Positions 1 to 63,029 of a stretch of 64,000 nt of DNA are shown here, in pieces. Within the stretch, counting starts at the first letter, position 1. Every line of letters starts with the position of its first letter. Under the pieces are notes generated by a model that had not been told where the DNA came from, searched no databases, and saw nothing but the letters and a program-made list of their open reading frames with translations. Both the position numbers and the translations under genes were made by a program. Source of the stretch: Flavobacteriales bacterium (GTDB taxonomy: Bacteria; Bacteroidota; Bacteroidia; Flavobacteriales_F; PHOS-HE28); the NCBI GenBank assembly GCA_016703105.1, contig JADJCS010000007.1, forward strand, positions 143,810 through 207,809, in the 5' to 3' direction.

Positions 1-234
1 ATCCCTCCGGAAGACCGTGAACGCTTTGGGGATGAATTCTGAACCCTTCGGAGGCATCTTTCGGCAGCAAACGTAGCATCACTTACCAGGCCGGTTCCGC
101 CCCGCGGGACCCATCTATGCACCGGTGCCTGTTCCTCGTTCGTTCCGCAGATGCGGGCTGTGGTTGGTCCGTGTACCGAAATTCGCCGAGAGAACAGAGC
201 ACCGGATCGGAGCGGACAATTCTCACAACAGAAC

Positions 235-645
235 ATGGGATGGATGAGGAGAGTCGACAAATGGTTCGGACACGAGACGTTCGTAGTGCCCATGAACGAA
301 TGGGAGCGTGTCGTGTCGATCATCCGCAATGAGCCCATGCGCGAGGTGTACATCATGGGTCCCAGGGATTTCGGCACCACCTGCCAGGTCAACGCCGTAC
401 GATCGCTCCATGTGGTCGATGACAAGGGTCGACCCGCGGACCTCACGATCGATCCGGCGATCGAGGTGGGGATCACGAAGCGCTCAGGCGTCATAAGACG
501 CGGGTATTTCGATGGCATCCACATCAAGGATGACCTGTTGATCCTGCCTCGCTCCCGCTTCCGCTTCGGCATGAAGTTCATTCCGCTTTCGGAGGTGGTG
601 AAAGTCGAGGTGTTCCGGGGGGGCATCGGATTCCGTTACGCATGA
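235..645 (+). CDS. hypothetical protein (ORF 151..645; probable start at internal Met MGWMRR)
   Basis: Long ORF with coding-like composition; no recognisable motif. Start uncertain. Confidence 0.35.
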   Translation: MGWMRRVDKWFGHETFVVPMNEWERVVSIIRNEPMREVYIMGPRDFGTTCQVNAVRSLHVVDDKGRPADLTIDPAIEVGITKRSGVIRRGYFDGIHIKDDLLILPRSRFRFGMKFIPLSEVVKVEVFRGGIGFRYA

Positions 646-729
646 GTCCTGCTCCTGCCCGTCCGCTCCAGACACCAGCCCTTCCAGTGTGAGTTCCGTC
701 ACAGACCGGGAAAGCCGGCCGACCGACCT

Positions 730-1155
730 TTGCGCACCATGAAAAAGCTCCTGTTCCTGTTCATCCTCCTGTTCGCAGTGACAGGTGCCTTCCCGCAGAA
801 TGCCCCGCGCCACCACCGCATCATCATGCAGCTCACCAGCGGCGACACGCTGGTGCACAAGAACCTGATGAAACAGTTCAGGAACATGAAGGAAGCCGCT
901 CCCACCATGCAGCTGGAAGTGGTCTGTCATGGCCCGGGCATGGACATGCTGATGAGCGACCGCAGCATCGTGCAGGAAAAAGTGAAGGAGTTCGCCGCGA
1001 AAGGCATCGTGTTCCTGGCCTGTGAGAACACCATCAAGGAGCGCAGCCTCGACCGGACGAAGGTGGTCCCTGATGCGGGGTACGTGAAGGCCGGGATCAT
1101 CCACATCGTGGAGCGGCAGGAGGACGGCTGGAGCTACATCAAAGCGGGGTTCTGA
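730..1155 (+). CDS. DsrE/DsrF-like sulfur-relay family protein with N-terminal signal peptide
   Basis: Hydrophobic signal-like N-terminus (MKKLLFLFILLFAVTGAF). 'VVCHGPG ... FLACENT' arrangement is typical of the DsrE/YchN-like fold. Sits in a sulfur cluster. Confidence 0.55.
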   Translation: MRTMKKLLFLFILLFAVTGAFPQNAPRHHRIIMQLTSGDTLVHKNLMKQFRNMKEAAPTMQLEVVCHGPGMDMLMSDRSIVQEKVKEFAAKGIVFLACENTIKERSLDRTKVVPDAGYVKAGIIHIVERQEDGWSYIKAGF

Positions 1156-1158
1156 CGC

Positions 1159-2586
1159 ATGCGCATCGCATCCTCGCACCGATCGTCCAATGGTCGGTGG
1201 GGCCTGTCCCTTGTCCTATCGGTCGTGTTCCCCCTCTTCGTGAGCGCCCAGCACAGCGAGCAGGACATCCCCAGTGACGACAGCTTGCGAAGCACCGGCA
1301 AGCTGTACGACATCATGAAGCGGGGCGAAGTGGTGGGACGCTTCCGCCAGTACAATATGCTCACCATCAATGATGGAACACCGACGGACTACCATGCGGT
1401 GGCCTTCGGAGGCACGCTCGGCTTCACTTCGCAACGCTGGCATGGCACGCGCTTCAAGCTCAGCGGTGGCTACACCTTCGACTTGGCGACAAGCGACCTC
1501 ACCGTTCTCGACCCCATTACCGGTGCCAGCAACCGCTACGAGATCGGATTGTATGATGTGAACGACCCGCGCCACACCAACGACCTGGCCTACCTACACG
1601 AATTCCAGTTGGACTGGTTGTCGCGCAATGAACGAACACAGGTGGTGATCGGAAAACAAGAATTGAACACGCCCTTCCTCAACCCACAGGATGGGCGCAT
1701 GCACCCCAGCTTGTTCGAAGGCATCTGGGCACAGCACCGCACGACCCACGGCACAGCGCTACAAGGCGGATGGATCTATCGCGTGGCGCCCCGTGGCGCC
1801 AGCGAATGGTACACGGTGGCCGAGAGCATGTCCGTTTTCCCGGTCGGTCGCAACGTATACGGCGAGGGCGCAGAACATGGGGAACACCTCCAGAGCGCGG
1901 GAATTCTAGCGGCAAGCATCAAACAGAAGGTGTACCGCTCGGTGTCGATCACCGCCTGGAATGTTCACACCGAGAACGTCTTCAACAGCGCGTTGATGCA
2001 ACTTGATGCGGGCAAGAAAGAAGCCCGCTGGAGTGCGTCCACCATGGCCATCCGGCAGGACGCCGCGCATTATCGAGGGCACGGCAACGACAGTCTGTTG
2101 TACATGCCAGCGAGCGAAGCCTCTTGGGCGCTCAGTGGACGATTGCGCAATGTGCTCGGCAAATTCCGCTGGCAGCTGAACTACACGCGCATAACCGCGC
2201 ATGGCCGTTACCTGATGCCGCGCGAGTGGGGCCGCGACCCCTTCTTCACGTTCCTGCCGCGCGAGCGTAACGAAGGAGCCGGAGATGTACACGCAGCTTC
2301 ATTGAACCTGATCTGGAGGGCGGACAACGGCTGGCGGATCCAGGTGGATGGCGGTCTGTACCGGATGCCCGAACTCACCGATGCGCGGCTGAACAAGTTC
2401 GTGATGCCATCCTACACGCAGTTCGATGTGAACGCGCAATACCAGTTCAATGGCGGATGGAAGGGCCTTGCTGCGCAAGTACTGGTGCTGGCGAAGCTTC
2501 CACTGCATAGTAACCTCACTGAACGGCAGTCGATCAACAAGGTGGATATGCTGCACGCGGACCTGATCATCAACTACGTGTTCTGA
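1159..2586 (+). CDS. outer-membrane beta-barrel protein (porin-like), hypothetical
   Basis: Signal peptide. Alternating amphipathic beta-strand pattern rich in aromatics. C-terminal '...NYVF' with terminal Phe, typical of OMPs. Confidence 0.5.
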   Translation: MRIASSHRSSNGRWGLSLVLSVVFPLFVSAQHSEQDIPSDDSLRSTGKLYDIMKRGEVVGRFRQYNMLTINDGTPTDYHAVAFGGTLGFTSQRWHGTRFKLSGGYTFDLATSDLTVLDPITGASNRYEIGLYDVNDPRHTNDLAYLHEFQLDWLSRNERTQVVIGKQELNTPFLNPQDGRMHPSLFEGIWAQHRTTHGTALQGGWIYRVAPRGASEWYTVAESMSVFPVGRNVYGEGAEHGEHLQSAGILAASIKQKVYRSVSITAWNVHTENVFNSALMQLDAGKKEARWSASTMAIRQDAAHYRGHGNDSLLYMPASEASWALSGRLRNVLGKFRWQLNYTRITAHGRYLMPREWGRDPFFTFLPRERNEGAGDVHAASLNLIWRADNGWRIQVDGGLYRMPELTDARLNKFVMPSYTQFDVNAQYQFNGGWKGLAAQVLVLAKLPLHSNLTERQSINKVDMLHADLIINYVF

Positions 2587-2672
2587 CACGCGCGTCGCTC
2601 TGTGATGTCAGTCACCGACGGCGCTTGGCGAACTCCGCACCTTTGTACCGCGAAAGCAAAACACCATAGACC

Positions 2673-2972
2673 ATGTTCAAGACATTGTTCGGTATCGGCC
2701 CCAAAGTGGACCTCGGTCAGAAGATCAAGGAAGGAGCGACCATCGTTGACGTGCGCACGGCGGACGAGTTCCGCAGCGGTCATGTGCAGGGAGCGATCAA
2801 CATCCCGTTGGACCGCATCCAGGACGAGTTGAAGAAGCTCGACAAGAGCAAACCGGTGATCACCTGCTGCCGCAGCGGTGCGCGCAGTGGCATGGCCGCC
2901 GATGAATTGAAGCGCCACGGCTTCGACGTCTACAACGGTGGGCCCTGGACCACCTTGAAGAATTCCATGTGA
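2673..2972 (+). CDS. single-domain rhodanese-like sulfurtransferase
   Basis: Rhodanese active-site loop 'ITCCRSGARS'. ~100 aa. Close paralogue of 11432..11740. Confidence 0.85.
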   Translation: MFKTLFGIGPKVDLGQKIKEGATIVDVRTADEFRSGHVQGAINIPLDRIQDELKKLDKSKPVITCCRSGARSGMAADELKRHGFDVYNGGPWTTLKNSM

Positions 2973-3036
2973 GCATCCATGAGGCATTAGAGCCGTGCCA
3001 TTCGCGCGGTTCCCGCCTTTAACGACCTGGTCGATC

Positions 3037-3429
3037 ATGCGCAACCTCTTCGCTCCCGTCCGACTATCCGCACTGCCGCTTCTGCTGATGGCATGCACCA
3101 TGCCCCAACAAGGCACCAACAGCCTGGATGCGGCCGCCTTTGCCGTCCGCCTTGCGGAAAGCGATGCACAGTTGGTGGATGTGCGCACCGCCGCTGAATA
3201 TGCGGATGGTCACATCGCAGGTTCGCGGAACTTGGATCAGACCAGCGGGCAACTGGCACAGAACGTGAACGAACTGGAGAAGTCGAAACCTGTGCTGCTC
3301 TATTGCGCCTCCGGTCGTCGCAGTGCCGCAGCGCGCGCCTACCTTCAGCAGCAGGGCTTCACCGATGTGGTGGATCTGGCCGGTGGGATCGGCGCATGGG
3401 CCGGGGCTGGAAAGCCCATCGAACGCTGA
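3037..3429 (+). CDS. rhodanese-domain lipoprotein
   Basis: Lipoprotein-like signal 'LLLMAC'. Rhodanese catalytic loop 'LYCASGRRS'. Start trimmed from ORF 2995. Confidence 0.8.
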   Translation: MRNLFAPVRLSALPLLLMACTMPQQGTNSLDAAAFAVRLAESDAQLVDVRTAAEYADGHIAGSRNLDQTSGQLAQNVNELEKSKPVLLYCASGRRSAAARAYLQQQGFTDVVDLAGGIGAWAGAGKPIER

Positions 3430-21474: not shown

Positions 21475-23124
21475 TTATGGGTGATTCGCTGATGGCCGAG
21501 TGAGTTTGCGCAATTCGGCTAAAGCCGCATTGATCTCATCGCCCTTTGCAGCTATCAGATCCATCAATTCGATCGGGGTCCGCTCATCCACATCCGCTTT
21601 CCGGTTCGGGTTCACGGCCTTCAGGTCGTAAACGCTGTTGAGCCGGTCCTTGCGCTTGGCCTCGTCAAGCTTCGCTGCTTCCTCTTGGGCTTTCTTCTTC
21701 CGCGCATCCAGGTCAATGGTCCAACTGCGTTCACTATCGGTGCGGGTGGGTAGCAGGCGGAAGAACTCCTCGAAGTGGTCCAAGGTCATTGGGTTCTTCT
21801 TGCGGATCTTCAGATCGCTGAGGTCGTAGTACCAGATCTTGCGCGTGGGCTGGCCCTTGGTGAAGAAGAGCAAGTTGGTCTTTACGCCTGCGCCCGCTTG
21901 GGTGAAGACACCACCCGGCAAGCTCACGATGCACCATAAATCACACTCGTTCAAGAGCTTCTGCTTAGTCTTCACGAAGGCATCCTCGTTCGCACGGAAG
22001 AGCACGCCTTCGTCGAGCACGATACCGCAACGGCTCTTGTTCTTCATGTGCTTCAGCAAATGCTGTATGAAGAGCACCTGCGTGCTGCTGGTTTTGTAGG
22101 CGAAGTCCGTTTGCGCCTCCTTGCCCTCCTTGCCGCCGAAGGGTGGGTTCGTGAGGATCACATCGAAGAATTCCGGTGCGCCTTCAAAGAGACCTTCATA
22201 GTCAATGCGACCAGTAAGGGTGTTGCCCCACCAGAGGTTGGGCTTGTCGATGCCGTGCAGGATGAGATTGGCCAGCGCGATGGGAAAAATGAGACCCTCT
22301 TTCTCGCGGCCGAAGAAGGTCTTGTTCTTCAGTGTGGTCAACTGGTTGGCCGTGGCCTTGGCGCCGTAGGTGTTGATCACGTGCTCATAGGCCTCGGCCA
22401 AGAAACCACCGGTACCACACCCCGGGTCATAGATGGTCTCGCCGGGTTTGGGGTCGATAGCCTTGACAACCGCTTTGATCACTTGACGAGGCGTGAAGAA
22501 CTGCCCACCGTCGTTGTTCTTTTCGCCCATCTTCAGCAACAGGCCTTCGTAGACCTGGCTGAGCGCGAAGACGTGCGAGGAATCCATGCTTTCCTGTTGC
22601 AGCTCGTGGACTTTGTCGAGCACATCAAGGAAGTTACGCTCCGTATCCACCCGCACTTTCTCCACGCTGTTCATCACCTCGCTGATCACCTTCTGGCGGG
22701 CGGTGGCGCGCGGATGGTCCTTCAGGCTCTTTAGGTAGGGCAGCAACTTCTCGTTCACGAAGGCGAACAAGGAGCCTTGCGGCGCGGACGTGAGTTCCTC
22801 ACGTTTCTTGGCCTTGGGCGCTGCCCAGTCCTGCCAACGGTATGGCGCGTTGATGCTCGCAGCGAACGCGCGCCCTACGGCCTTGTTCTCGCTCGCCTCC
22901 TGTGTCTCGCGCTCATCCAGGATCCGCAGGAAGAGGATCCACGTGAGTTCGGGGATGTACTGCAACGCGCTGGTGCAGCCACCGCGACGCAGGATGTCGC
23001 AGATGGTCTTCACCGCGCTGTTCACGCTGCTTTGCGAGGACAAGGCACGAGCCATTTCCTTCGGCACGCGCTCCTTCTTCACCTTGCCTGGCGCGGCATT
23101 CTTGCGGGGGTGTCCTTTGGGCAT
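21475..23124 (-). CDS. hsdM: Type I restriction-modification system DNA methyltransferase subunit
   Basis: N6-adenine MTase motifs 'DPGCGTGGFL' (motif I) and 'NPPFGG' (motif IV). 549 aa. Confidence 0.95.
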   Translation of the reverse strand: MPKGHPRKNAAPGKVKKERVPKEMARALSSQSSVNSAVKTICDILRRGGCTSALQYIPELTWILFLRILDERETQEASENKAVGRAFAASINAPYRWQDWAAPKAKKREELTSAPQGSLFAFVNEKLLPYLKSLKDHPRATARQKVISEVMNSVEKVRVDTERNFLDVLDKVHELQQESMDSSHVFALSQVYEGLLLKMGEKNNDGGQFFTPRQVIKAVVKAIDPKPGETIYDPGCGTGGFLAEAYEHVINTYGAKATANQLTTLKNKTFFGREKEGLIFPIALANLILHGIDKPNLWWGNTLTGRIDYEGLFEGAPEFFDVILTNPPFGGKEGKEAQTDFAYKTSSTQVLFIQHLLKHMKNKSRCGIVLDEGVLFRANEDAFVKTKQKLLNECDLWCIVSLPGGVFTQAGAGVKTNLLFFTKGQPTRKIWYYDLSDLKIRKKNPMTLDHFEEFFRLLPTRTDSERSWTIDLDARKKKAQEEAAKLDEAKRKDRLNSVYDLKAVNPNRKADVDERTPIELMDLIAAKGDEINAALAELRKLTRPSANHP

Positions 23125-23129
23125 GCGGG

Positions 23130-23573
23130 TCAGGTCTTCAGCGCGCCCTTGGCCAAGCGATCACGAACGGAATTGCTCAGCATCACAGGAGGCTGCTTAT
23201 CAGAACCTGTCATATCAAGGCATCCATCGAAGCGATCAGGAAAAGGAATGATCTGCGCGTGAGCGCCATTCTCGGGGTCTTCTGCGGGATGGGGATCGTG
23301 GCAAACGCACAAGGCCAATGAGCGCACATGGGCGGTGGCCAAGCGGCACAAGCAGTACTTACCGGGATCCGTTGTCGCCTTCTTGGCCCGTTCCAGCGTG
23401 GTCAATCGCTCTACATCCACAGAAAGCCCACTTTCCCCCTTGTCTTTGCGCAACCGGAATGCCAGCGGTGTCGCCGTTCCATCCTCGCGGAAGTAATTGT
23501 CTCCTTCAGCGTACACCCGGCGCAGCAACATGTCAGCGTCAGCGATCGCCTGCCGTGGTATCCTACTTTCCAT
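23130..23573 (-). CDS. hypothetical protein Z, RM-embedded cargo
   Basis: ORF 23130..23630; start ambiguous, with ATGs at 23573 and 23531. Stop is 6 nt before the hsdM start. No recognisable family. Confidence 0.4.
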   Translation of the reverse strand: MESRIPRQAIADADMLLRRVYAEGDNYFREDGTATPLAFRLRKDKGESGLSVDVERLTTLERAKKATTDPGKYCLCRLATAHVRSLALCVCHDPHPAEDPENGAHAQIIPFPDRFDGCLDMTGSDKQPPVMLSNSVRDRLAKGALKT

Positions 23574-24048
23574 GCAGATGGTCCAACAGGCGGTGCGGGC
23601 GGTACGCACCCTCATAAGGATATTCATCACCCTCGATCAGGAGCAATTCGTTGCCGTCCTCTGCACTGAAGTACACTTGGGCCTGCCGTTTACCAGGGGC
23701 CTTGAACTCGATAAACAGTTCGCCGTTGGGCCCTGCACCGATGTGGTTAGGGATGAAACCAGCGTAGCCCAGGTCCTTCACAGCTCGCTTCGCCATGCGC
23801 ACCGTGGCTTGTGATGGGGCAATGGCACCCATGCCGTCCCAATCTGCCTTGAGTGCGCGTGTGCGTTCGATCCGGGCCAGTTGGTAACGCAACTCTTCGC
23901 TCACGGGGTATGAGAGGTGCGCATCGATCACAGAACTGGTGGCGCTGGAAGAGAACGCGATGGTGAGCAGCCCTTTGATCTTGTCCGACCAAACGCTGGT
24001 GTAATCGTCCACTTGCGTGGGTATGCCAAGGCTAAGCGAAGGAGGCAT
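23563..24048 (-). CDS. hypothetical protein Y, RM-embedded cargo
   Basis: 161-aa ORF with ATG start, tightly packed between X and Z. No recognisable family. Confidence 0.4.
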   Translation of the reverse strand: MPPSLSLGIPTQVDDYTSVWSDKIKGLLTIAFSSSATSSVIDAHLSYPVSEELRYQLARIERTRALKADWDGMGAIAPSQATVRMAKRAVKDLGYAGFIPNHIGAGPNGELFIEFKAPGKRQAQVYFSAEDGNELLLIEGDEYPYEGAYRPHRLLDHLHGK

Positions 24049-24778
24049 GGAAGTCGGGTTGGCAGAAGTCCTTGAAAAGCTTCGAACTCAGATCGTGCGC
24101 AGTGTTACCCCAAGCCAGCAGCCCGGCGCGGTCGAAGGATCCTTTCCGCTGCACGGTGGTTTGCCAGATCAGGCGGTCATCGCCGTCACGATCCGTGCCA
24201 CTGCCGATCTGCAAATGCAGTTGGTCGTCGTCGGGCAGGTCGAACAGCTGCTGAAACGAGACGTCCTTGGGCACCATGCCATGGTCGAATTGGTTGGCGA
24301 AGCCGAAGCGTAGGTGCTTGGAGATGAACGACGCCCAATCGGTGAAGCCATAGTCCTTCACCTTCACACTGTCTATGTACCGCAAGGCCACCTGCTCATA
24401 GGGCAAGGTTCCGTCGTAGGCTTTCTCCAGCATTTCCAACCCGTAGATCAGGGTGGGCTGGTAGCTCTCCTGCCAATCGTAGTTCTTGTCCGTATCGTTC
24501 ACGGTGAACACTCCGGGGCCCAATTGCAGCAACGGGCTGGCACCTGGCTCCTTCCGGAATTGCAGCACCGCCTGCCGTGCGAAGAGGTGCTGAGTAAGCG
24601 GATGGAATGGCAGTCGCTGATCCACATGCGGGAAGCGTTCCTGCACATGGGCTTTTAGCGCACCGGCGGCCAAACTATATTTCTGGTCGTACTCCTGACC
24701 CGTAGCCTGGTCGGTATCCAAGGCCCACCGGGCCTCGAAGATCACTTCTTGCAAGGGGGCGTTCGATAGGCGGCTCAT
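24032..24778 (-). CDS. hypothetical protein X, RM-embedded cargo
   Basis: ~250 aa; start trimmed to MSRLSNAPLQEVIFEARW. Directly downstream of hsdS; no recognisable catalytic motif. Confidence 0.45.
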   Translation of the reverse strand: MSRLSNAPLQEVIFEARWALDTDQATGQEYDQKYSLAAGALKAHVQERFPHVDQRLPFHPLTQHLFARQAVLQFRKEPGASPLLQLGPGVFTVNDTDKNYDWQESYQPTLIYGLEMLEKAYDGTLPYEQVALRYIDSVKVKDYGFTDWASFISKHLRFGFANQFDHGMVPKDVSFQQLFDLPDDDQLHLQIGSGTDRDGDDRLIWQTTVQRKGSFDRAGLLAWGNTAHDLSSKLFKDFCQPDFHASFA

Positions 24779-24864
24779 CAGGAGGTCAACGCAAAGTAAT
24801 CCGGCTTGGTGCGCGCGCAACGGCGAGCCTGCTAAATTGTGTTACACAAAGGCATGTTGGCAAG

Positions 24865-26070
24865 CTACCCGCCTCCGAACACCGCCCCCAACAACTTCCC
24901 GGGCAGTGCCTCGATCACCGCACCTTCTTCGTTGCACTTCGCCACGGTACCCCGGCTTAGCCGGATCGCCTTCTCCAACCGATCCGCGATGGAGCGTTGT
25001 TCAGCCAGCGAAGGCACATGTAGTTGCAGACTCTTGATCGTGGGCATGTACACCGTCTTGTGCGTGGCCCCGCTGGATAGGCCTCGGAAAAAATGCCGCG
25101 ATGCCATGAACGCGTACATCAAGTAGCGAGGGTCCAGTTGTTCGCCGCACACCCAGTTCGCGAAGTCCTGACTGGTAGCCATTTCACGCCCCATGATGGT
25201 GGTGAAGCCTACCGACGCCGTGCGCGAAAGACACACCGTTCCCTTCGGGAGCAGTCGCGCGGCGGAGTTCGCCAAGCCCAACTCGTTCGTGCGTTCACCG
25301 GAGCGCATGGCCACTTCTCCATCCAGCCTGCGCACATCGGAGAGTTGCAACCACTCCACATCGCCATGCCACCATTCGGGATGGTTCCGGCTCGGGGTAT
25401 GGCCGCTTTCCAATCGCGCCAACTTGGTGATCAGTTTCCACGACCAGCCCTTTCGTTCACCTACTTCATCGCTGTCCAGTGCTACCGGAACGATACCATG
25501 GAACGCATCCAGCAACAGCTTTGCTTCCAACCTCCCCGCCGCCGCTACCCGCTCCGCCGCCGCCTTGCGCGCCTTCTCTACTGCCGCCAGCTGCCCTGTG
25601 AGCAAACCCGCGATGCGGTTCTGTTCGTTAGGTCCGTGCTTCGGCACCATCATCTTCATCAACTCTTTCATACTCGCACGGGGCATCCTCGACCCGGTGG
25701 TATCTCTCATAGCTAACTCAACCGCTTCAGGACGCCGCAACAAATAGGAGAGATACTCACGGGAAGTGCCGGGGGTCGGAAGCAAGGGGATGATCTCCGT
25801 CGTACACCTTCCGGGCTGGTCGGGCAGTGCGACTTTGTTCAAGTAGGGCCGAAGCTTCCCATAGAGCACATGGCGTTCATCGTAGTAGAACGTGGTGCTC
25901 TTGCCTTCATCCGCGACCGCATCTTCTGGTTCCTTCAGCAGCCGACCAGTCTGCGCCTCGACGTGCTCCAAGCTGAGGTAGGAAAGTCGGCGGGCCTCTG
26001 CGGAGCCACCTTCAACTATCCTCCTGTCTTCGATGCAGAGTGATAACAGCGGGATGAACTCGCTCTTCAT
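24865..26070 (-). CDS. hsdS: Type I restriction-modification specificity subunit
   Basis: 401 aa with two target-recognition domains separated by conserved coiled-coil spacer regions. ATGA overlap with the upstream hsdR tail. Confidence 0.85.
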   Translation of the reverse strand: MKSEFIPLLSLCIEDRRIVEGGSAEARRLSYLSLEHVEAQTGRLLKEPEDAVADEGKSTTFYYDERHVLYGKLRPYLNKVALPDQPGRCTTEIIPLLPTPGTSREYLSYLLRRPEAVELAMRDTTGSRMPRASMKELMKMMVPKHGPNEQNRIAGLLTGQLAAVEKARKAAAERVAAAGRLEAKLLLDAFHGIVPVALDSDEVGERKGWSWKLITKLARLESGHTPSRNHPEWWHGDVEWLQLSDVRRLDGEVAMRSGERTNELGLANSAARLLPKGTVCLSRTASVGFTTIMGREMATSQDFANWVCGEQLDPRYLMYAFMASRHFFRGLSSGATHKTVYMPTIKSLQLHVPSLAEQRSIADRLEKAIRLSRGTVAKCNEEGAVIEALPGKLLGAVFGGG

Positions 26071-26354
26071 GCCGCAAACATCCGCTTCTTGGTTTCCTCG
26101 AACAATACGGCAGGTTCACCGGCTAATTGCAAGGCCTGCAAGCCACCGGCATTGCGCACGGCAGGCGTTTGAAAGATCTGCGGGTTCTCCAGGCCCTCGG
26201 TGCCTTCCACTTTGAATTGCCCGGCAATGGCCAGCAGTGCAGCGCGCGTCTTCTCCGGCAAGGTGTGCAACCAGTCCTCATGCTTGTAGCGGAAGGCCCC
26301 ACGCGGTCTTCCGCGTGCGCGGCAAGGCACCCCAGCCCAGTTGCGCCAGCACAT
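26067..26354 (-). other. hsdR: out-of-frame C-terminal fragment of hsdR (EcoEI_R_C-like tail)
   Basis: '...YKHEDWLHTLPEKTRAALLAIAGQF...ENPQIFQTPAVRNAGGLQAL' is the conserved HsdR C-terminal domain. The frame shift sits at the C/G run near 26295-26300. Confidence 0.6.
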
Positions 26355-28461
26355 CGTACAGGTCGTAGGCTTCCATGGCGTCCACCAGTTGCACCACAGC
26401 CGGGCTGCAACCGCTGCTCACGAGCAGGTGCATCAGTTCCTCGCGCGTGGGTGGGTCCACCCATTGCTGCCGGAACTCTTCCAAACTGTGCGCTTCCTGC
26501 AAGAGACGTGTGGCCAGGCGCTGGCGGTATTCCTCCACGGGTATCGGCTTGGCCTGCCCATCCACCTCCGCCACGATGAAGTGCCCGGCGGGCGATACAT
26601 GCACGTCGAAGCCATCCACGGTGATGATGCGCGGGGGCTCACCCTCGCCGCCTCCTTCACTTCCTTCACCTTCTTTCTTCGGCTTGGTAATGAACTCCTC
26701 ACCGAATAGCCGCGTGGCGTTGGTGTAATCGTAGAGCCGGAACATCAGCTTCTGGCTCTCGGGGTGCAGGCGTGTGCCGCGCCCCACCATCTGGTAGAAG
26801 CTGATGGGACTCTTGAGGTATTTGAAGAAGACGATGTTGCGGATGATGGGCACATCCACGCCGGTGGTGAGCAGGTCCACCGTGGTGGCGATGAAGTGGC
26901 TGCGGGTGCTGGCGCGCAGGTCCGGCAGTTGGTCGTTGCCACTGCTGGCCGCCGTGCATTTGAAGGCGTACATGTCCAGCCGTTCGGCACCGTTGGCGGT
27001 ACACCATGCGGCGTAGAGGTTGTTCAGCTTCACAGCAACGGCATCGGCATGTGCATCACGGGCGCAGAAGATGATGGTCTTCTGTTCCGGACCGCCGCTT
27101 TCCAACAGGTAGTTGAAGAGGTCCTGGCACATGGCCGCCACGCGGTCCGGCAGCATTAAGCTGTTCTCGTAGGCGGTGCTGGCATAGTGCTCCTGTACGT
27201 CGGCCGTGGTAAGCAGCTCCCCTGTGCGAGCATCGCGTGGTTCGCGCGCCATGATCTCCTCCACGGTAAGGCCGCGCTCATCGATGCTCACGCGACCCTT
27301 CTTTATCTCGCATGCGGCGAGGTAGCCATCCTCCACGGCCTGTGTATAGCTGTACTCATAAACCGGTTCGCCGAAGTATTTCAGGTTGTTGGCGGTGATG
27401 GCCTTGTCGGCCTCGGCTTCCTTGGTGTGTGCCTCAACGGTCAGTTCGCGCGGTGTGGCGGTGAGACCGATCTGCGCGGCCTTCGCGTTGCGCTCCAGCA
27501 CTTTGCTCCACTTGCCCCATGCGCTGCGGTGGCACTCATCGATGACGATGTGTGAAAAGTGGTTCTCGGGATAGAAGGTGGTAAGGAAGGACGCGTCGCC
27601 CTCATCCGTATCGACCCCGAGCGTTTGGTAGGTGGCGATGTGAATGCGTGCGTTCTTGGCGTTGTTGGTCTCGCCCTTCTTGTACACCTCGGCGGCATCG
27701 GCACCGAAGGCGTTGTTGAAGGCACCGAGCGCCTGCGTGCGCAGTTCGTCGCGGTCGCAGAGGAAGAGGGCGCGCGTCATCTGGCCGGAATCGCTCAGGC
27801 GCTTGAGCAGATTCACGGCAATGAAGGTCTTGCCCGCACCGGTGGCGAGCGAGAGCAAGGCGCGCTTAGGTTCACCTGTCTTCTCGCACCGCGCCATCTT
27901 CTCGAACACGGCACGGATGGCGGCATCCTGATAATAGCGGCGCGTGCCTTCGCCGGTGGCATAAGGCTGCAACAGTGGCTTGGCGGCCTCGTCGTTCAAG
28001 CTGAAGCCTTGGGCCGATTCGTAGCGTGTGCGCAATTCATCCGGCCCAGGAAAATCGGACATCGGCATTGCGACCGTGGTCATGCCCGTATGCCTATCGA
28101 ACAGCACGAACATGTGCCCGTTGCTGCTGATAACGAACTGCACGTTCAGCCGTTCGCACTTGGCGTAGCACTTGGCTTGTTCCAGACCATGTCCAGGCAT
28201 CAGGCTTTCCTTCTTCGCTTCCAGTACCGCGAGCGCAACGGGCTGTTTGCCGCCGGTAACGCTCACGCGCAGCACATAATCCACCTTGCCGCTGCGCTGC
28301 CTGCGGGCCTTGTTGTCACCAATAAGGTCGATGCCGCCCGCCGTTTCCTCCCGCCGGATGTGGTCCTCGTTCCACCCGCACCGATAAATGGCGGGGTCGA
28401 TGAGCTTGGCGCGGGTGTCGGCTTCGTTGAACAAGGCGGGTGAAAGTAGGGTGCGGAACAA
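26278..28461 (-). CDS. hsdR: Type I restriction enzyme R subunit (frame breaks near C-terminus)
   Basis: N-terminal nuclease/'DUF' region, SF2 helicase motifs ('LATGAGKT', DEAH-like 'VIDECHRS'). The 727-aa frame ends at 26278; the conserved C-terminal domain continues in another frame. Confidence 0.9.
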   Translation of the reverse strand: MFRTLLSPALFNEADTRAKLIDPAIYRCGWNEDHIRREETAGGIDLIGDNKARRQRSGKVDYVLRVSVTGGKQPVALAVLEAKKESLMPGHGLEQAKCYAKCERLNVQFVISSNGHMFVLFDRHTGMTTVAMPMSDFPGPDELRTRYESAQGFSLNDEAAKPLLQPYATGEGTRRYYQDAAIRAVFEKMARCEKTGEPKRALLSLATGAGKTFIAVNLLKRLSDSGQMTRALFLCDRDELRTQALGAFNNAFGADAAEVYKKGETNNAKNARIHIATYQTLGVDTDEGDASFLTTFYPENHFSHIVIDECHRSAWGKWSKVLERNAKAAQIGLTATPRELTVEAHTKEAEADKAITANNLKYFGEPVYEYSYTQAVEDGYLAACEIKKGRVSIDERGLTVEEIMAREPRDARTGELLTTADVQEHYASTAYENSLMLPDRVAAMCQDLFNYLLESGGPEQKTIIFCARDAHADAVAVKLNNLYAAWCTANGAERLDMYAFKCTAASSGNDQLPDLRASTRSHFIATTVDLLTTGVDVPIIRNIVFFKYLKSPISFYQMVGRGTRLHPESQKLMFRLYDYTNATRLFGEEFITKPKKEGEGSEGGGEGEPPRIITVDGFDVHVSPAGHFIVAEVDGQAKPIPVEEYRQRLATRLLQEAHSLEEFRQQWVDPPTREELMHLLVSSGCSPAVVQLVDAMEAYDLYDVLAQLGWGALPRTRKTAWGLPLQA

Positions 28462-28551
28462 CGCGAGGGTATGCCATTAGCCGTCCCGCGATGCCACGAC
28501 CCAACTGAAATGCCTGCGTTCTTCAGGCGTGGTGCTAACCTGCCTACCCGT

Positions 28552-29382
28552 TCACCCTGCCGTGAGCAGGTTCGCAAGCACATTCGCACCAACGTCCTTG
28601 GCGAATTTGGCGGTGTGCCTGGACACCTCCACCGCCGCCCGCATCAACTTCTCACGGTTGCGGTCTTCAATTGTCCCGATCAGTCGCTCCACCCAGGGTC
28701 GATCTTCCTTAACGATGGCTATCGAAGTACCCTCCATCGCATCGCTTAAAGCCCGTGCATCGCGCAGGAGCAATTGCCAACCTTCTTCGTCGATCACTTC
28801 AGCGTTCTCGATGAATGGAAGCTGCAGCTGCACGGACTTGCGGAAGTGCATGTCCATCTGGGTAGACACAGGGCCTTCGATCAAGTTCAAGTACGAAGCA
28901 CGGAAACTCTCGGTCGGGGTGGCGTTCGCGATGATCTTCACCTTCTGGAATTTTTCGCGGATCAGGTCTTTAGAGATGTAGGTGATAAGCCAAGTGCGGA
29001 ACGTTTCCTTTTTCGAGAGGTAAGCACTGTCGTAGAGCACATGCACGATGCGCTCAGTGCTATAGCTCCGCGCTCCGCTATCATCCCCGTTCAGCTCACG
29101 TGAGTTGTTGAAGAAGCGGATCTGTTGGTTGCGCACTTGCTTGGGGTTTACCCTGAACTCCACCTGCAACGCTTCGACCTTTTCATGGAGTGGAACCCTA
29201 CCCCGCACACCGGCAATAGAAGTGATGGAAAGATTGTGCACGTACACATAGAAATCATTCAGGTCGAAACCCTTCAGACAGCTGATCTCCTTCACTTCGC
29301 TCGCAACCACCTTCAATGTAAATGGGCTGAGGACTTGATCACAGTGGATGCGAAATCCGAAGTAGCGCTCAAGATTCGTCAT
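28552..29382 (-). CDS. hypothetical protein, compositionally atypical (lower GC than surroundings)
   Basis: 276-aa ORF immediately upstream of hsdR. GC by eye ~52-55% against ~65% background. No motif assigned. Confidence 0.5.
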   Translation of the reverse strand: MTNLERYFGFRIHCDQVLSPFTLKVVASEVKEISCLKGFDLNDFYVYVHNLSITSIAGVRGRVPLHEKVEALQVEFRVNPKQVRNQQIRFFNNSRELNGDDSGARSYSTERIVHVLYDSAYLSKKETFRTWLITYISKDLIREKFQKVKIIANATPTESFRASYLNLIEGPVSTQMDMHFRKSVQLQLPFIENAEVIDEEGWQLLLRDARALSDAMEGTSIAIVKEDRPWVERLIGTIEDRNREKLMRAAVEVSRHTAKFAKDVGANVLANLLTAG

Positions 29383-29738
29383 CGGATCGGTCTTGGAGTG
29401 ACGCCAAACTACGCGTTACCACTTGGCGATCCATCGCTCGAGGCCGGGATTCTTGGGATCCAAGGCTCTCGGAAGGGCTTCCGAGAGCTTTATGATCCTA
29501 CAAAGCCCAGCGGTGCATCAGGGAAAGTATAATCGACCCAGCTATAGGTGGCCTTCAGCGATCAGGCCCCTTGGCAGCGGGTGCATTCGCACCGCACAAC
29601 CATTTTACCAAGTAATCAATGAGCTCCGCTTACCTCTTCGTTCCGTTCAAGAAGGCATTCACGACAACCTGTCAACCACTAACCAACCAACCCATTGGCC
29701 CACCAACCCATGGGCTCCGCCCACCTTTTTGATCCGCG

Positions 29739-30116
29739 GACCATGGTCTTCACCGAAGACACCTTGGTCTCCCGGTCCGGGACCATAGTCTCCGAACAGT
29801 AGACGATGGACTCCGGACAACAGACCATGGTCCGCAAGCAGCAGCCAATGGTCTCCGACGCGCGGACGATGGTCTACACCGAAGAGACGATAGTCTCCCG
29901 GTGCGAGACCATGGTCTCCGAATAGCAGACCATGGTCTGCGAGCAGTAGACGATGGTCTCCGACGCGGGGACGATGGTCTACTCCGAAGAGACGATCGTC
30001 TCCCGGCGCGGGACCATGGTCTCCGAACAGCAGACGAGGGTCCGCAAACTCTAGACGATGGTCTGCCACGCGCGGACCATGGTCTACGACGAAGAGACGA
30101 TGGTCTTCCGGTCCGG
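29739..30116. repeat. tandem array of ~18 x 21-bp units (core GACCATGGTC palindrome) with 5-unit (105-bp) higher-order periodicity
   Basis: Read directly: units 'acSatggtctNNNNNNNNNNg' cycle through five tail types (..ccgaagag / ..cccggNNcgNg / ..ccgaacagcag / ..gcgagcagtag / ..ccgacgcgggg) about 3.5 times. Confidence 0.9.
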
Positions 30117-30315
30117 TAGCGCGGCCATGCGCCGGTGTGCCGATGCATTTCCTGGAAAGCGCATGGGGCGCGGCTTACAGGCGGTGATCACCCGGTGTAC
30201 CGGGTAAGGATCGAACCCCGGTACACCGGGGGAAAAAGAACGATCGCCGGGGGCTTTGCGATTCACCGGACATAACCAACGCTTTTGTGGGTACAGCAGG
30301 ACAGGCCCTCACCGC

Positions 30316-30948
30316 ATGAAGAAGATACTCTATACCGTAAAGCTTGGATTCACCAAGTTGACCGCCGCGGCCCTGGTCGGAAAGGGACGCACCAATGTGG
30401 AGATGTTGACGGGCAACGCGACCTACGCAACGCCGATCCCGCCACTCGCCACGATCACCGCCGCTTGCGACACGCTCGATGTGGCGAGCAATGCCTACGA
30501 TTTCTCCCGTAGCCGTTTGGACAAGGAGGACCGCGATGTAGCGTTCGCGGAATTGAAGGGGCTGTTGAAGGAATTGGGTGGCTACGTGCAAGCCATCAGC
30601 AAGGGGGACAAGGATCTGATCTTGAGCGCGGGCTTCGAAGTGGAGAAGGCCGCCAGCCCGATCGGGCAGCTCCCCGCCCCGCCCAATGTACGTGCCCTCG
30701 TAACGCCCTACCCCGAGCGCCTCGAGGTGAAGTGGGGGGGCGTAAAGGGCCGCACCACTTATGAACTGTGGATGACCGATGGTGATCCCAAAGTGGAGGC
30801 GAACTGGAAGCTCCACGCCATCACCAGCAAGAACCGCGCGATGGTGGAAGGCCTCACCAGCAACACCATCTACTTCTTCCGTGTAGTGGCGCAAGGCGCC
30901 GCCGGGGCCAGCCCGGTGAGCGATACCGCCAACGCGAAAGCCGCCTGA
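30316..30948 (+). CDS. hypothetical protein with fibronectin type III-like C-terminal domain
   Basis: Start trimmed to MKKILYTV. C-terminal '...YELWMTDGDP...WKLHAITSKNRAMVEGLTSNTIYFFRVVAQGAAG' resembles an FN3 beta-sandwich. Confidence 0.45.
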   Translation: MKKILYTVKLGFTKLTAAALVGKGRTNVEMLTGNATYATPIPPLATITAACDTLDVASNAYDFSRSRLDKEDRDVAFAELKGLLKELGGYVQAISKGDKDLILSAGFEVEKAASPIGQLPAPPNVRALVTPYPERLEVKWGGVKGRTTYELWMTDGDPKVEANWKLHAITSKNRAMVEGLTSNTIYFFRVVAQGAAGASPVSDTANAKAA

Positions 30949-31023: not shown

Positions 31024-31815
31024 ATGCTTACGATGCACCCGCTCGAAACCCACGAACTGCGCGACGCCGCGCAGCTCTGCCCCCGCGACCCCAACGCCCT
31101 GTTGGGGCATTTGCGTTGGTGCATGTGTACGCCTTACGCGGAAGCGTTCTCCATGCGGCTGGGACCCAAAGTGCTCGGCGTGGCCACTCTGGTACACTTC
31201 GGCACCACCTCGCGCGTGGGCTGCTTCCACATCCACCAGGCGCACCAGCGCAAAGGCTTGGGCACCCTCCTCGCACTGCACTTGCGGAATGTGCAGGATC
31301 AAGAGGATCGCTCCACCCTCATGGTGCAAGCCGCACCGCAGGAGGCCGCTTTCTGGGAACGCCTGGAGTTCACCGAGCAATGCACCTTCACCACGTATGC
31401 GAACGGCCACTTCATCGAAGCCAGCCGCGATGAGGTGGCGCTGATGGAACCCGCGCACACCCTCGCCCTTCTGCACCTGGACAAGCACGCCACAGGTGAG
31501 GACCGGCGCGCGCTACTGCTCGAGCATCAGTACGCCGCCCACGCTTACGTGGAGCAGGGACGCGTGCGCGGCGCCCTGCTGCCGCTGGTGGGCCAGGGCC
31601 TCATCATCGCCGATGCGCCAGCGGTAGGCCTCGAACTGCAACGCTGGCTACCGCCCACCCAGCACCGCATTACCGTGCCTGCGGACAATGCCGCCGCCAA
31701 CGAGCACTTGCGCGAACGCGGCTATGATCCCATCGGTAGTAGTGTGCGGCTGGTGCATGGGTCGGCGCCTGCCTTCAAGGCGGAGATGGTTTTTGCTTGG
31801 CCTTGGGGGAGGTGA
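31024..31815 (+). CDS. GNAT-like acetyltransferase family protein (weak)
   Basis: 'VHPEHQRKGLG'-type acetyl-CoA binding motif, seen here as 'IHQAHQRKGLGTLL'. Confidence 0.35.
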   Translation: MLTMHPLETHELRDAAQLCPRDPNALLGHLRWCMCTPYAEAFSMRLGPKVLGVATLVHFGTTSRVGCFHIHQAHQRKGLGTLLALHLRNVQDQEDRSTLMVQAAPQEAAFWERLEFTEQCTFTTYANGHFIEASRDEVALMEPAHTLALLHLDKHATGEDRRALLLEHQYAAHAYVEQGRVRGALLPLVGQGLIIADAPAVGLELQRWLPPTQHRITVPADNAAANEHLRERGYDPIGSSVRLVHGSAPAFKAEMVFAWPWGR

Positions 31816-31906
31816 GCACTACCGGGCATCCCACATTCCGCAGCACCGGTGCGCGAAGCAGCGAACCTTCCGCACCAACCGTCTGTTCGTTCACCAACTT
31901 CGCCGC

Positions 31907-33244
31907 ATGGTACGTTCCATTCTCTTCGCCCTCCTTTCCCTGGCAGCCGCACCCCACCTGCCTGCGCAATGGGTGCCGGGCGACTCCTTTGGCAGCACCT
32001 ACCACCACCAGGCATGCGCCTTCCACGATGTGGATACGGGCCTCTTCGTCTATGGCACGGACAACCCGAACAGCGGCGAGGGCGGCGTGATCATCACCTG
32101 GTCCGGGTTGACGGACTCCGGCGGCGTGATCTGGTACCAGTCCTTCATGAACCTGGAGGACATCGACGTGCGCATGGGCAGCAACGGCCGGCCCATTTAC
32201 CTGGCAGCGGGGCATAAGCAATACGCGTTCAGTGTGGCGTTGCATCCCTACCTGGCCGGTGGCAACCCCTTCCAGTTCGACAGCGTGCGCACGGGCGACG
32301 CCCGCCACTACCGCGCCATCCGCATGCGCAGTGATATCGTGGCCTTCGCCGGCGGCGGCAATTATGTGGGCGACGGCATCATCGACATGAGCGTGGACAC
32401 CGGCTACACGTGGACGAACATCGCGGTGCTGCCGGGTCAACCCGTTTCGCGTCTGCACTTCGTGGACGACCTGCTGGGCTTCGCGGCCACCGGCGGCTAC
32501 CGGCGCCTGGCCGCTTTCGGCGTGAACGTCCCGGACAGCGGCGCCATCTACCGCACCACCGATGGCGGCTTGAACTGGCTGCAGGTACACCGCGATACCA
32601 TCACCGGTTTCTCCGATGTCGCCTTCAGCTCGCTCACCACCGGTGTGGCCACGCGCAACGATGGGGTGATCCTGCGCACCACGGACGGTGGCACCACCTG
32701 GGTGCCCGCCGTGGTGAACCTGCCCGCCGCCAGCGTGATGACCTCCGTGACCTTCCGTCCGGATGGGACCGGCTTCGCCAGTGCGTACCGCGCAGATGGA
32801 GTGAGCGGCTACATATTGATCAGCACCGATGACGGCCAGACCTGGGACGAGAACTTCAACACGAGCGGCTTCAACCACTCGCGCCGCATCTACGATGTGT
32901 ACTTCTACGATGATGCGCACGGCTATGCGAGCACGCACATCCGACCGCTGCGCACCAGCGGGCTGGTGACGGATGTGCCGGAGATCGTAGAGCAAACCCT
33001 CGTCCTCTACCCGAACCCGGCGATCGATCTCGTGCAGCTGGCGTGGGAGTTGCCGGGTGCCGCGACGGGCGGTGGTCGGTTGTCGGTTGTAAGTGCGCAC
33101 GGGCAGTTGGTCAGCGACTTACCGATCGCACCAAGTACCACGAGCTATACGTTGGATGTCTCGAACTACCCGCCCGGACTTTACCATTTGCACTTGGTGG
33201 TGGATGGGCAGCTGGTGAGCGCGGCGAAGGTGGTCATCGAATAA
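31907..33244 (+). CDS. secreted Ycf48/BNR-repeat-like protein with T9SS C-terminal domain
   Basis: Signal peptide MVRSILFALLSLAAA. Repeated 'TTDGG.NW' / 'TTDGGTTW' / 'STDDGQTW' BNR-like motifs. C-terminal T9SS CTD. Confidence 0.7.
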   Translation: MVRSILFALLSLAAAPHLPAQWVPGDSFGSTYHHQACAFHDVDTGLFVYGTDNPNSGEGGVIITWSGLTDSGGVIWYQSFMNLEDIDVRMGSNGRPIYLAAGHKQYAFSVALHPYLAGGNPFQFDSVRTGDARHYRAIRMRSDIVAFAGGGNYVGDGIIDMSVDTGYTWTNIAVLPGQPVSRLHFVDDLLGFAATGGYRRLAAFGVNVPDSGAIYRTTDGGLNWLQVHRDTITGFSDVAFSSLTTGVATRNDGVILRTTDGGTTWVPAVVNLPAASVMTSVTFRPDGTGFASAYRADGVSGYILISTDDGQTWDENFNTSGFNHSRRIYDVYFYDDAHGYASTHIRPLRTSGLVTDVPEIVEQTLVLYPNPAIDLVQLAWELPGAATGGGRLSVVSAHGQLVSDLPIAPSTTSYTLDVSNYPPGLYHLHLVVDGQLVSAAKVVIE

Positions 33245-62162: not shown

Positions 62163-63029
62163 TCAGAAGTTCCAGAGATCGTGCTCGAACTCAAAGAGGG
62201 ATTGCTTGATCTCCTCCCCTTCAAGCAGCGCATCAAGACCGGTCCGGTACACCCCGATCTTCCGATCGTACACGTTGCTCCACTTTGTAATGGTGCTCGA
62301 GAACTGGCGCTTCCAGAAGATATCCTCGAAACTGCGCCGTTCCGCATCGTTCTCCCGGTTGAAGACCTCCCAGTTGGCGAAGACATACCTGCACTCTGGG
62401 AAGTACAGCCAGAATAGGGTTTGGAATCCCTTGGATTCACCATCCTGTCCCTTCTTTTCGATCATCGGCGCAATGCCAATGATCCGGATATCGATCTTGC
62501 TGCGTTGCTTATCGAAGATCCAATCCTCCTTGATCCTGTACCGTTTGACATCCGAGGATTCCAGAGATATCTCTTGAATCACCTGCTGCATATCACCAGG
62601 GTTGTCCGGATCCTCGGTGTACGAAGTGTCCAAACGCATGAACATGGTCTTCAGATCGGATGGAAGTAAGGGTGTCTTGAATTCGTCCTCTTCGACCAAG
62701 TCCCCGGCATAGTACGCTGTGATACTTCCGTCGGTGAGCAGTCCCTGACGGATCACATCGAACAGACTCTTTCGATCGCTGATAGGGGTGATCGGATAAT
62801 ACAGCGGATGGTTGATCTTCTCGCGCATATCGATCTCCCGCCAAACACGTCGAGCGTACATGACATCCGCTTCACGAATGTGGGTATAAGGGACTACCCG
62901 TTTTGTCTTCGTATGCTCCTTTATGTACGCACCGTCCAAGACCGTTTGGGCTTGCACTGGAGCCATGACCATCACAAAGATCACGATCGGACCAAGTATC
63001 CGAATTGCGCTGGGCTGGTGCTTCTTCAT
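62163..63029 (-). CDS. gldN: gliding-motility protein GldN
   Basis: Signal peptide; ~290 aa; similarity to GldN; immediately downstream of gldM. Confidence 0.8.
   Translation of the reverse strand: MKKHQPSAIRILGPIVIFVMVMAPVQAQTVLDGAYIKEHTKTKRVVPYTHIREADVMYARRVWREIDMREKINHPLYYPITPISDRKSLFDVIRQGLLTDGSITAYYAGDLVEEDEFKTPLLPSDLKTMFMRLDTSYTEDPDNPGDMQQVIQEISLESSDVKRYRIKEDWIFDKQRSKIDIRIIGIAPMIEKKGQDGESKGFQTLFWLYFPECRYVFANWEVFNRENDAERRSFEDIFWKRQFSSTITKWSNVYDRKIGVYRTGLDALLEGEEIKQSLFEFEHDLWNF

Follow-up and report, generated by a model that had tools for sequence, protein, structure and literature searches.

What is a gene whose product matches no named protein family doing immediately upstream of the restriction subunit gene of a type I restriction-modification (R-M) system? 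The question is raised by a stretch of 64,000 nucleotides (nt) from a Flavobacteriales bacterium of the phylum Bacteroidota (GenBank assembly GCA_016703105.1, contig JADJCS010000007.1, positions 143,810 to 207,809 of the forward strand), referred to below as the window, in which an open reading frame (ORF) encoding 276 amino acids (aa) occupies positions 28552..29382 of the minus strand. An original prediction, made from the letters alone, described this ORF as a low-GC orphan whose composition suggested recent acquisition, and whose position it held to be typical of abortive-infection (Abi) or anti-restriction-control genes that hitch-hike with R-M systems. The answer favoured here, to which we give a probability of about one-half on the strength of sequence comparison, is that the gene belongs to a rare, horizontally mobile and modular family of conflict genes of the anti-phage, abortive-infection type, whose N-terminal domain may serve as sensor and whose C-terminal module may serve as output, and that it probably resides beside the R-M system as cargo.

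A genuine gene with a constant N-terminal domain

The 276 aa ORF is a genuine gene, because two homologues of ~45 % identity match it over most or all of its length and because its AlphaFold2 model, built with the family alignment, is confident (predicted local distance difference test score, pLDDT, 90.2; predicted template modelling score, pTM, 0.71). A spurious ORF was considered and rejected, the protein being conserved and the model confident. The predicted coordinates proved exact, on the minus strand, and the ATG start given by the ORF list and translation is supported by homologues that share the initial M-x-N-x-E-x-Y-F-G-F.

The protein falls into no Pfam, NCBIfam, PADLOC or PHROGs family; its sole match in these four libraries (SigX, E = 0.022) was dismissed as chance, and PADLOC-DB v2 returned no defence family at E≤0.01. 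Three proteins came out of a word-indexed search of 5.8 billion clusters, namely a metagenome copy (P0001) that differs at one residue over 276 aa and the two homologues of ~45 % identity, and an exhaustive phmmer comparison with 1.84 billion representatives gave 96 cluster representatives at E≤1e-3, 65 of them at E≤1e-10, with values down to 1e-34 for full-length distant members. The term orphan is therefore apt as far as named families are concerned and wrong as a statement about homologues. Family members range in length from 186 to 583 aa, and nearly all of them align only to residues 1 to ~190 of the query, which correspond to an N-terminal constant domain (N-domain; aa 1-192, positions 28807..29382, minus strand). 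A profile of this domain finds the window ORF at E = 1.8e-63 (hmmsearch). Across the alignment G9, Y47, H49, N79, K81, Q82, N92, K147 and T174 are nearly invariant, and the window protein has every motif of the domain: the M-x-N-x-E-x-Y-F-G-F start, VYxH, VNxKQ(x5)hxFxN, KIK and T..D. On these alignments, the protein can be assigned to an N-domain family that is absent from the catalogues.

In the model, the N-domain is a beta-sandwich with inserted helices (residues 1-190), followed by a disordered hinge (192-194) and a six-helix bundle (199-275). Structural neighbours of the modelled N-domain are generic beta-sandwiches only. Likewise, 36 N-domains compared with Pfam at E≤5 gave no recurrent family, and the family and C-domain profiles matched only designed helical bundles and noise among Protein Data Bank (PDB) sequences. 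As the original prediction had expected, profile and structure searches (Pfam, NCBIfam, PADLOC, PHROGs and PDB) gave no housekeeping homologue. A limited check of the literature produced no paper describing either the N-domain or the C-terminal domain discussed below, and neither is present in the four libraries; the domains may have been described before under another name.

The family is extremely rare, amounting to ~100 clusters among 15 billion proteins, and its spread is sporadic, its hosts being metagenome-assembled genomes (MAGs) of Bacteroidota, Acidobacteriota and Pseudomonadota. Close homologues used as queries found no related locus in GTDB genomes. A degenerate DNA pattern found at least 119 loci in genomes, with at least five true family members among the matches listed, and one true member among 52 loci in IMG/VR. 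By tblastn, three queries (window, L141 and L104) gave no N-domain match among 72,556 plasmid records, nor did two of them (window and L141) among 50,697 phage records.

Exchangeable C-terminal modules

Downstream of the N-domain, the family is a collection of different proteins. In the window protein, a linker of low confidence (aa 193-198; 28789..28806, minus strand; pLDDT <50 at residues 192-194) leads into a C-terminal helical bundle (aa 199-276; 28555..28788, minus strand) that was delimited by the alignment, its consensus and the clustering of C-termini by BLAST; relatives have longer, Gly-rich linkers at the corresponding site. This helical module is the commonest C-terminus of the family, being found in 41 of ~80 representatives, the window ORF included, in an all-against-all BLAST comparison. 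It has the consensus ...LKxxGxWxLxxAExIGxxxxxxxIKxxxG, its profile finds the window ORF at E = 1e-14, and the window copy forms, with its closest relatives, a divergent subtype without the linker. When 40 helical C-domains were compared with Pfam at E≤5, neither a recurrent family nor any of the EAD families was recovered.

Other members have recognizable effector or adaptor domains in the same position. A Pfam scan of 88 members identified, at the C-terminus, Trypsin_2 (five members), TIR_2 (four) and one each of CHAT, PNP_UDP_1, PRTase-CE and EAD8. The PADLOC matches of the family come only through such C-terminal domains, and comprise SAVED_TIR, ThsB, RT-Protease_XI, PRTase_III-A, a PN-superfamily effector and LmuA. 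There are at least eight further classes of C-terminus and several tails that resemble transmembrane (TM) segments, and more than 15 representatives are stand-alone N-domains of ~190 aa. The helical module also leads an independent life, since its profile finds free-standing proteins of 57-160 aa that consist of a Gly-rich segment and the helical domain. Two of these adjoin genes for TIR-NB-ARC-WD40, HTH-TIR-Roc-WD40, trypsin-NACHT, Trypco1 and FHA proteins, and neighbourhoods of this sort have been described for nucleoside triphosphate (NTP)-dependent conflict systems (Kaur et al. 2020, PMC7159879). The 64 kb window contains no second copy of either the N-domain or the helical C-domain.

Genomic contexts of family members

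Contexts were assembled for 12 independent loci, a small and non-random sample, and four of them are of defence type: type I R-M twice, cargo of a P2-type prophage, and a retron-type reverse transcriptase (RT). The second R-M association belongs to P0002, a member with the N-domain and the helical module, which is followed on the same strand by genes for Mrr, HsdR, HsdS, AAA_13 and HsdM, in that order. It is probably independent of the association in the window, because the architecture of HsdR differs, being 1012 aa and of the EcoR124_C type at the P0002 locus vs 727 aa in the window. A further member of the same domain composition, on an IMG/VR contig (L141), lies in a low-GC cargo segment that adjoins P2-type tail genes (sheath, tube, tape measure, gpU and gpD), and its neighbour is an ATPase of the AAA_15/AAA_21 kind with matches to the AriA, NsnB, GajA and Old models. 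Three others with the helical module (L006, L007 and L067) are solitary among ordinary genes. Two members with a TIR domain (L104 and L079) and one whose C-terminus is a putative PNP-type nucleosidase (L073) are also among the loci; for these three and L067, annotation of neighbours covers a single adjacent ORF at L067 and another at L104, and neither of those two ORFs has a PADLOC match. Nowhere in the contexts seen is there an adjacent cyclase, TIR-signal generator or other signal-producing gene.

Some members have a companion. In a Terriglobales MAG (DATEGH010000270.1; L180, positions 33..3321, and also L181 and L182) an RT is followed, after a gap of 390 nt, by an N-domain-trypsin gene and an overlapping gene for a 145 aa multi-TM protein. 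The RT is retron type-VI-like (PADLOC RT_VI, 4e-64) and sits at the contig end, beyond which an upstream ncRNA or effector may lie, and positions 1..1700, which include the gap between RT and family gene, have no Rfam match; the two genes downstream may form a novel effector pair of a retron, or the RT and the pair may be two adjacent systems. At another locus (L183-185), a 137 aa TM homologue with 50 % identity to the 145 aa protein precedes an N-domain-trypsin gene between moeA and an aldo-keto reductase gene, and at L005 a TM homologue precedes a stand-alone N-domain member. The multi-TM partner thus occurs in three independent loci (L005 1023..1631, L180 2884..3321 and L183 2246..2659), upstream or downstream of the family gene; its copies share the N-terminal motif K-Y-I-P-x-D-I-V-x-A-W and are related by BLAST E values of 7e-41 and 6e-13. 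It has no PADLOC match, no Pfam family in the contig tables and no homologue in the window. An upstream gene of ~200 aa was also considered as a conserved partner and was rejected, the one at L007 being an unrelated single-TM coiled-coil protein.

Base composition

Low GC content was the observation on which the prediction of horizontal acquisition had been built. The ORF has 53.2 % GC, inside the 52-55 % estimated by eye, vs a window mean of 60.3 %, the background having been overestimated by ~5 points at ~65 %. The difference of 7 points amounts to 2.8 standard deviations (SD) below the mean (SD of 831 bp windows, 2.5 points), and places the ORF at the 1.8th percentile of windows of its size and second lowest among ~50 long ORFs in the window; the trough around it spans ~28500..29750. 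By codon position its GC content is 55/36/68 %. When expected values were taken from the codon table of 32 window genes outside the island, the window's codon preferences applied to this protein gave 56.6 %, vs a gene mean of 60.6 % (SD 2.3), so that amino-acid composition explains ~4 points of the deficit and codon choice a further 3.4 points. The difference between observed and expected GC (z ~ -2.2) is the most negative in the window, with hsdS and two other genes close to it. The GC and codon-usage calculation proposed to check the prediction thus bears out a real deviation, if a smaller one than had been estimated. The lowest GC content in the window (51.6 %) is that of a 288 aa ORF at 62163..63029 (minus strand), whose deviation in codon usage resembles that of the 276 aa gene.

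A deviation of this kind recurs throughout the family. In all 11 loci for which DNA could be compared, the family gene lies 4.5-18 GC points under its surroundings, and its GC content, from 27 % to 62 %, tracks that of the host, from 37 % to 68 %. Low GC is a family trait and no date stamp. The claim of recent horizontal acquisition is accordingly weakened, and was overstated, because low GC is family-wide and because codon usage accounts for only about half of the deficit here, the other half being compositional.

A mobile, modular defence gene?

We infer a mobile conflict or defence family from the exchange of effectors on a constant domain, the patchy distribution, the solitary low-GC insertions and the repeated defence neighbours, and it is on this basis that we place the probability of such a reading at about one-half. 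The suggestion of an Abi-like hitch-hiker is a reasonable one for much the same reasons, namely the effector fusions, the sporadic spread and the repeated defence neighbours. In the mechanism that we propose, the N-terminal beta-sandwich, with a putative polar patch made of the conserved Y47, H49, N79, K81, Q82, N92, K147 and T174, would be a sensing or regulatory and self-associating (oligomerizing) module, coupled to an interchangeable C-terminal module that would provide the output. For the window protein, this output would be the ~80 aa helical bundle, presumably an adaptor or a non-enzymatic effector, and the gene would be co-resident defence-island cargo bordering the type I R-M operon on its 5' side, neither a subunit nor a regulator of it. 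A more specific and more tentative version, to which we lean rather less than evenly, is that the beta-sandwich defines an undescribed and mostly single-gene anti-phage family, in which a trigger-sensing, oligomerizing switch would license interchangeable outputs (TIR, trypsin and CHAT proteases, PNP nucleosidase, PRTase, TM segments or the helical module, sometimes with the TM partner), and that the window gene would be the first member of the commonest subtype to be linked with R-M.

Several points weigh against a mobile defence family. No validated defence family in Pfam, NCBIfam, PADLOC or PHROGs matches the protein; no activity can be identified for the helical C-domain, which is shared by no partner in the window; and at least four contexts (L005, L006, L007 and L183) have no recognizable defence neighbour, as judged by Pfam marks for the last three. 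Type I R-M occurs in two of the 12 contexts, both of them among the closest homologues, which leaves room for a specific R-M link, and the contexts themselves are few and were not sampled at random. Finally, the polar residues, the stand-alone N-domains and the EAD8 fusion fit an N-domain that is itself the effector or enzyme equally well or better.

This last point leads to the main rival, which we hold to be unlikely, if far from negligible, and in which the roles of the domains are reversed: the N-terminal beta-sandwich would be the toxic module, acting either enzymatically through its conserved Y/H/N/K/Q/K residues or by latent formation of pores or oligomers, the helical domain at the C-terminus would be an adaptor or autoinhibitory piece, and the fusions to TIR, protease and PNP domains would be double-effector proteins. 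The existence of stand-alone N-domains in more than 15 representatives argues for it, as do the nearly invariant polar residues, which suggest a catalytic or ligand-binding site, the circulation of the C-domain alone beside STAND NTPases, like an adaptor, and the single fusion to EAD8, a domain that recruits effectors (Kaur et al. 2020, PMC7159879). The small TM partner and the trypsin fusions, moreover, recall the pore-formers Pepco and EACC1 (bioRxiv 10.1101/2025.11.14.688446). However, a constant domain on which classical effectors are swapped at one position usually marks a sensor or regulator, the similarity to hemolysin is that of a generic beta-sandwich (TM-score ≤0.31 by query length, identity ≤15 %), the Pfam models for Trypco, EACC1 and gasdermin are unmatched, and the model shows no stem-like segment, whether hydrophobic or amphipathic, in the N-domain. 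Retron membership is suggested by the Acidobacteriota lineage, where the type-VI-like RT lies 390 nt upstream of an N-domain-trypsin member, and by the overlap of the family's PRTase, trypsin and TIR C-termini with retron effector types; for the window gene it is barely credible, and effectively refuted by the absent RT, as BLAST finds no RT homologue in the window or at other family loci and Rfam finds nothing in the upstream region, while the RT at L180 is at a contig end and its own effector may lie off the contig.

The two remaining rivals concern the place of the gene rather than its domains. It is improbable that the gene has no defence role at all and is an accessory gene whose low GC comes from a Lys/Asn/Ile/Phe-rich composition and whose R-M neighbour is there by chance. 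Such an account suits the compositional half of the GC deficit, the plain housekeeping neighbourhoods of several members and the want of any match of the protein itself in defence databases, but it sits badly with fusions, across the family, to six effector or adaptor domains of the sort found in immune systems, with defence-type contexts at four of 12 loci, with extreme rarity and patchy phyletic spread, and with solitary low-GC insertions between unrelated housekeeping genes. The PrrC anticodon nuclease, which is embedded in the EcoprrI hsd locus and held in check by it, is the precedent for a dedicated accessory of type I R-M, and the window gene might in the same way modulate, guard or back up HsdR, or be a restriction-alleviation or anti-restriction factor. 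Its position on the hsdR strand 90 bp upstream, the presence of both closest homologues upstream of hsdR genes, the adjacency kept in two metagenome contigs that are independent of each other and come from the same species, and the similar placing of the ~45 %-identical P0002 upstream of a type I R-M system with a different type of HsdR all speak for this, and still we consider it quite improbable. Members with the same helical module (L006, L007, L067 and L141) have no R-M neighbour, Mrr stands between the gene and hsdR at the P0002 locus, relatives replace the helical domain by TIR, trypsin or PNP, and the protein lacks helix-turn-helix (HTH), ATPase and nuclease motifs and has an isoelectric point (pI) of 8.4 (9.2 for the N-domain) vs the acidic DNA mimics ArdA and Ocr. 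The anti-restriction or R-M control role put forward in the original prediction is likewise unsupported, because there is no HTH, the pI is 8.4 and most relatives are without an R-M neighbour.

If a mobile defence family were confirmed, two uncatalogued modules, the constant beta-sandwich and the mobile helical domain, would join the toolkit of prokaryotic immunity, the putative conserved polar patch would be a tractable sensor or effector to dissect, and there would be a further case of a defence gene bordering type I R-M operons on their 5' side, which bears on R-M loci as landing pads for second-line defences. The ecological weight of the family is small, because it is very rare and its N-domain has no plasmid or phage matches, and many similar candidate families already await testing.

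The R-M locus and its flanks

The window contains a type I R-M system with all three of its genes on the minus strand: hsdR, for a restriction subunit of 727 aa (26278..28461; Pfam ResIII 6e-34 and SWI2_SNF2; PADLOC REase_I 2.5e-82); hsdS, for the specificity subunit (24865..26070; Pfam Methylase_S; PADLOC Specificity_I 1.8e-63); and hsdM, for the methyltransferase subunit (21475..23124; Pfam N6_Mtase 1.5e-55 and HsdM_N). Three genes (23130..24820, minus strand) are inserted between hsdS and hsdM. One encodes a TIGR04255-family protein (24032..24820, minus strand; NCBIfam TIGR04255, 1.3e-21), and the other two (23563..24048 and 23130..23630, minus strand) have no Pfam, PADLOC or PHROGs match. 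The 276 aa ORF finds no match among the families of type I R-M subunits, and by hhalign both of its domains are unrelated to the TIGR04255 protein and to a neighbouring 161 aa ORF. Its placing at the low-GC edge of the hsdR-hsdS-(TIGR04255)-hsdM island, head-to-tail upstream of hsdR on the same strand, is as predicted. The ORF stops at 28552 and hsdR starts at 28461, leaving a spacer of 90 bp (28462..28551, minus strand) that recurs in metagenome contig L001; its one weak hairpin with a T-run (28528..28512) is within shuffled expectation.

Upstream, a non-coding gap of 930 bp separates the ORF start (29382) from a divergent gene at 30316, and positions 28300..30400 have no Rfam match. Inside the gap (29738..30106, plus strand) is an array of ~18 units with exact 21 bp spacing, each composed of a 12 bp palindrome, RGACSATSGTCY (e.g. 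AGACCATGGTCT), and a 9 bp variable spacer, with a super-period of 105 bp (five units). Fourteen of the 16 matches to the palindrome in the window fall in the array, where 0.47 would be expected by chance. The array is kept in near-identical metagenome contigs (L001 and L003), is absent beside other family members and has no Rfam match; it looks like a set of phased binding sites for a dimeric DNA-binding protein. The divergent gene (30316..30948, plus strand) encodes a 210 aa protein with a helical N-terminal and an fn3-like C-terminal part and no PADLOC match. A homologue with 27 % identity (E = 4e-8 in a small database) lies at L005 266..877, upstream by two genes of P0101, a member that consists of the N-domain alone. 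Farther along, at 31688..33244 (plus strand), is a gene for a BNR/Sortilin-type repeat protein with a Por_Secre_tail sorting domain for type IX secretion, which points to a host of the Bacteroidota/FCB group for the window.

Comparison with known systems

Controller (C) proteins are DNA-binding proteins of ~80-100 aa, of HTH_3/XRE type, encoded upstream of the restriction gene; the window protein, with its 276 aa, its beta-sandwich and its helical bundle, matches no HTH family. Nor do the anti-restriction proteins ArdA/Ocr and ArdB/KlcA offer a home, there being no Pfam match and the pI being basic. Abi genes embedded in type I R-M loci, such as prrC in EcoprrI and the RloC/AAA_13-type genes between hsd genes, are similar in position. 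They too are non-R-M genes that share the strand of an hsd operon and lie within it or at its border, and at the P0002 locus it is AAA_13 that lies between hsdS and hsdM, where the window has a TIGR04255-family gene. In contrast, neither an ABC-ATPase nor an anticodon-nuclease domain is present in the window protein, and most members of its family are found outside R-M loci.

Other defence systems are comparable in their architecture. Retron effectors (the PADLOC III-A PRTase, XI protease and XII TIR) overlap with the family in effector domains, and one family lineage is directly downstream of a retron type-VI-like RT; however, neither the window nor 10 other loci have an RT or msr/msd, and the N-domain is in no PADLOC retron model. 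The Cap effectors of CBASS (SAVED/STING), the SLOG-containing ThsA of Thoeris and the cNMP-binding effectors of Pycsar have, like the family, a constant ligand-type domain and interchangeable outputs, a likeness reflected in the SAVED_TIR, ThsB and PN-effector matches in PADLOC through the family's C-terminal domains. The constant domain is, however, a beta-sandwich here and not a CARF/SAVED, STING or SLOG fold, and most members of the family look solitary. Pepco (Trypco1/2) and EACC1 are protease-licensed latent pore formers (bioRxiv 10.1101/2025.11.14.688446), both of them small, non-enzymatic and genetically coupled to proteases of the trypsin or caspase type in defence islands. In a subset of the family such proteases are present as fusions and a small TM protein is the partner; on the other hand, the sequences do not match, no protease is fused to the window protein or encoded beside it, and pore formation is pure conjecture.

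A further comparison is with the effector and adaptor proteins of the NTP-dependent conflict systems, which include the effector-associated domains EAD1-11, Trypco and EACC1 (Kaur et al. 2020, eLife 9:e52696). Here, the same effectors are exchanged (trypsin, CHAT/caspase, TIR and PNP), one family member has an EAD8 domain, and free-standing helical domains of the window type stand beside TIR-NB-ARC-WD40, trypsin-NACHT, Trypco1 and FHA genes. The differences are that neither domain of the window protein matches the Pfam models for EAD, Trypco or EACC1 (E≤5) and that no STAND, MoxR or GTPase partner is near the window gene. As for membership in EAD1-11 itself, there is neither a match to an EAD model nor a second copy of either domain, and homology below the sensitivity of HMMER is possible. 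Modular immune proteins that swap effectors are well known, and it is the constant domain and the helical module of this family that are new.

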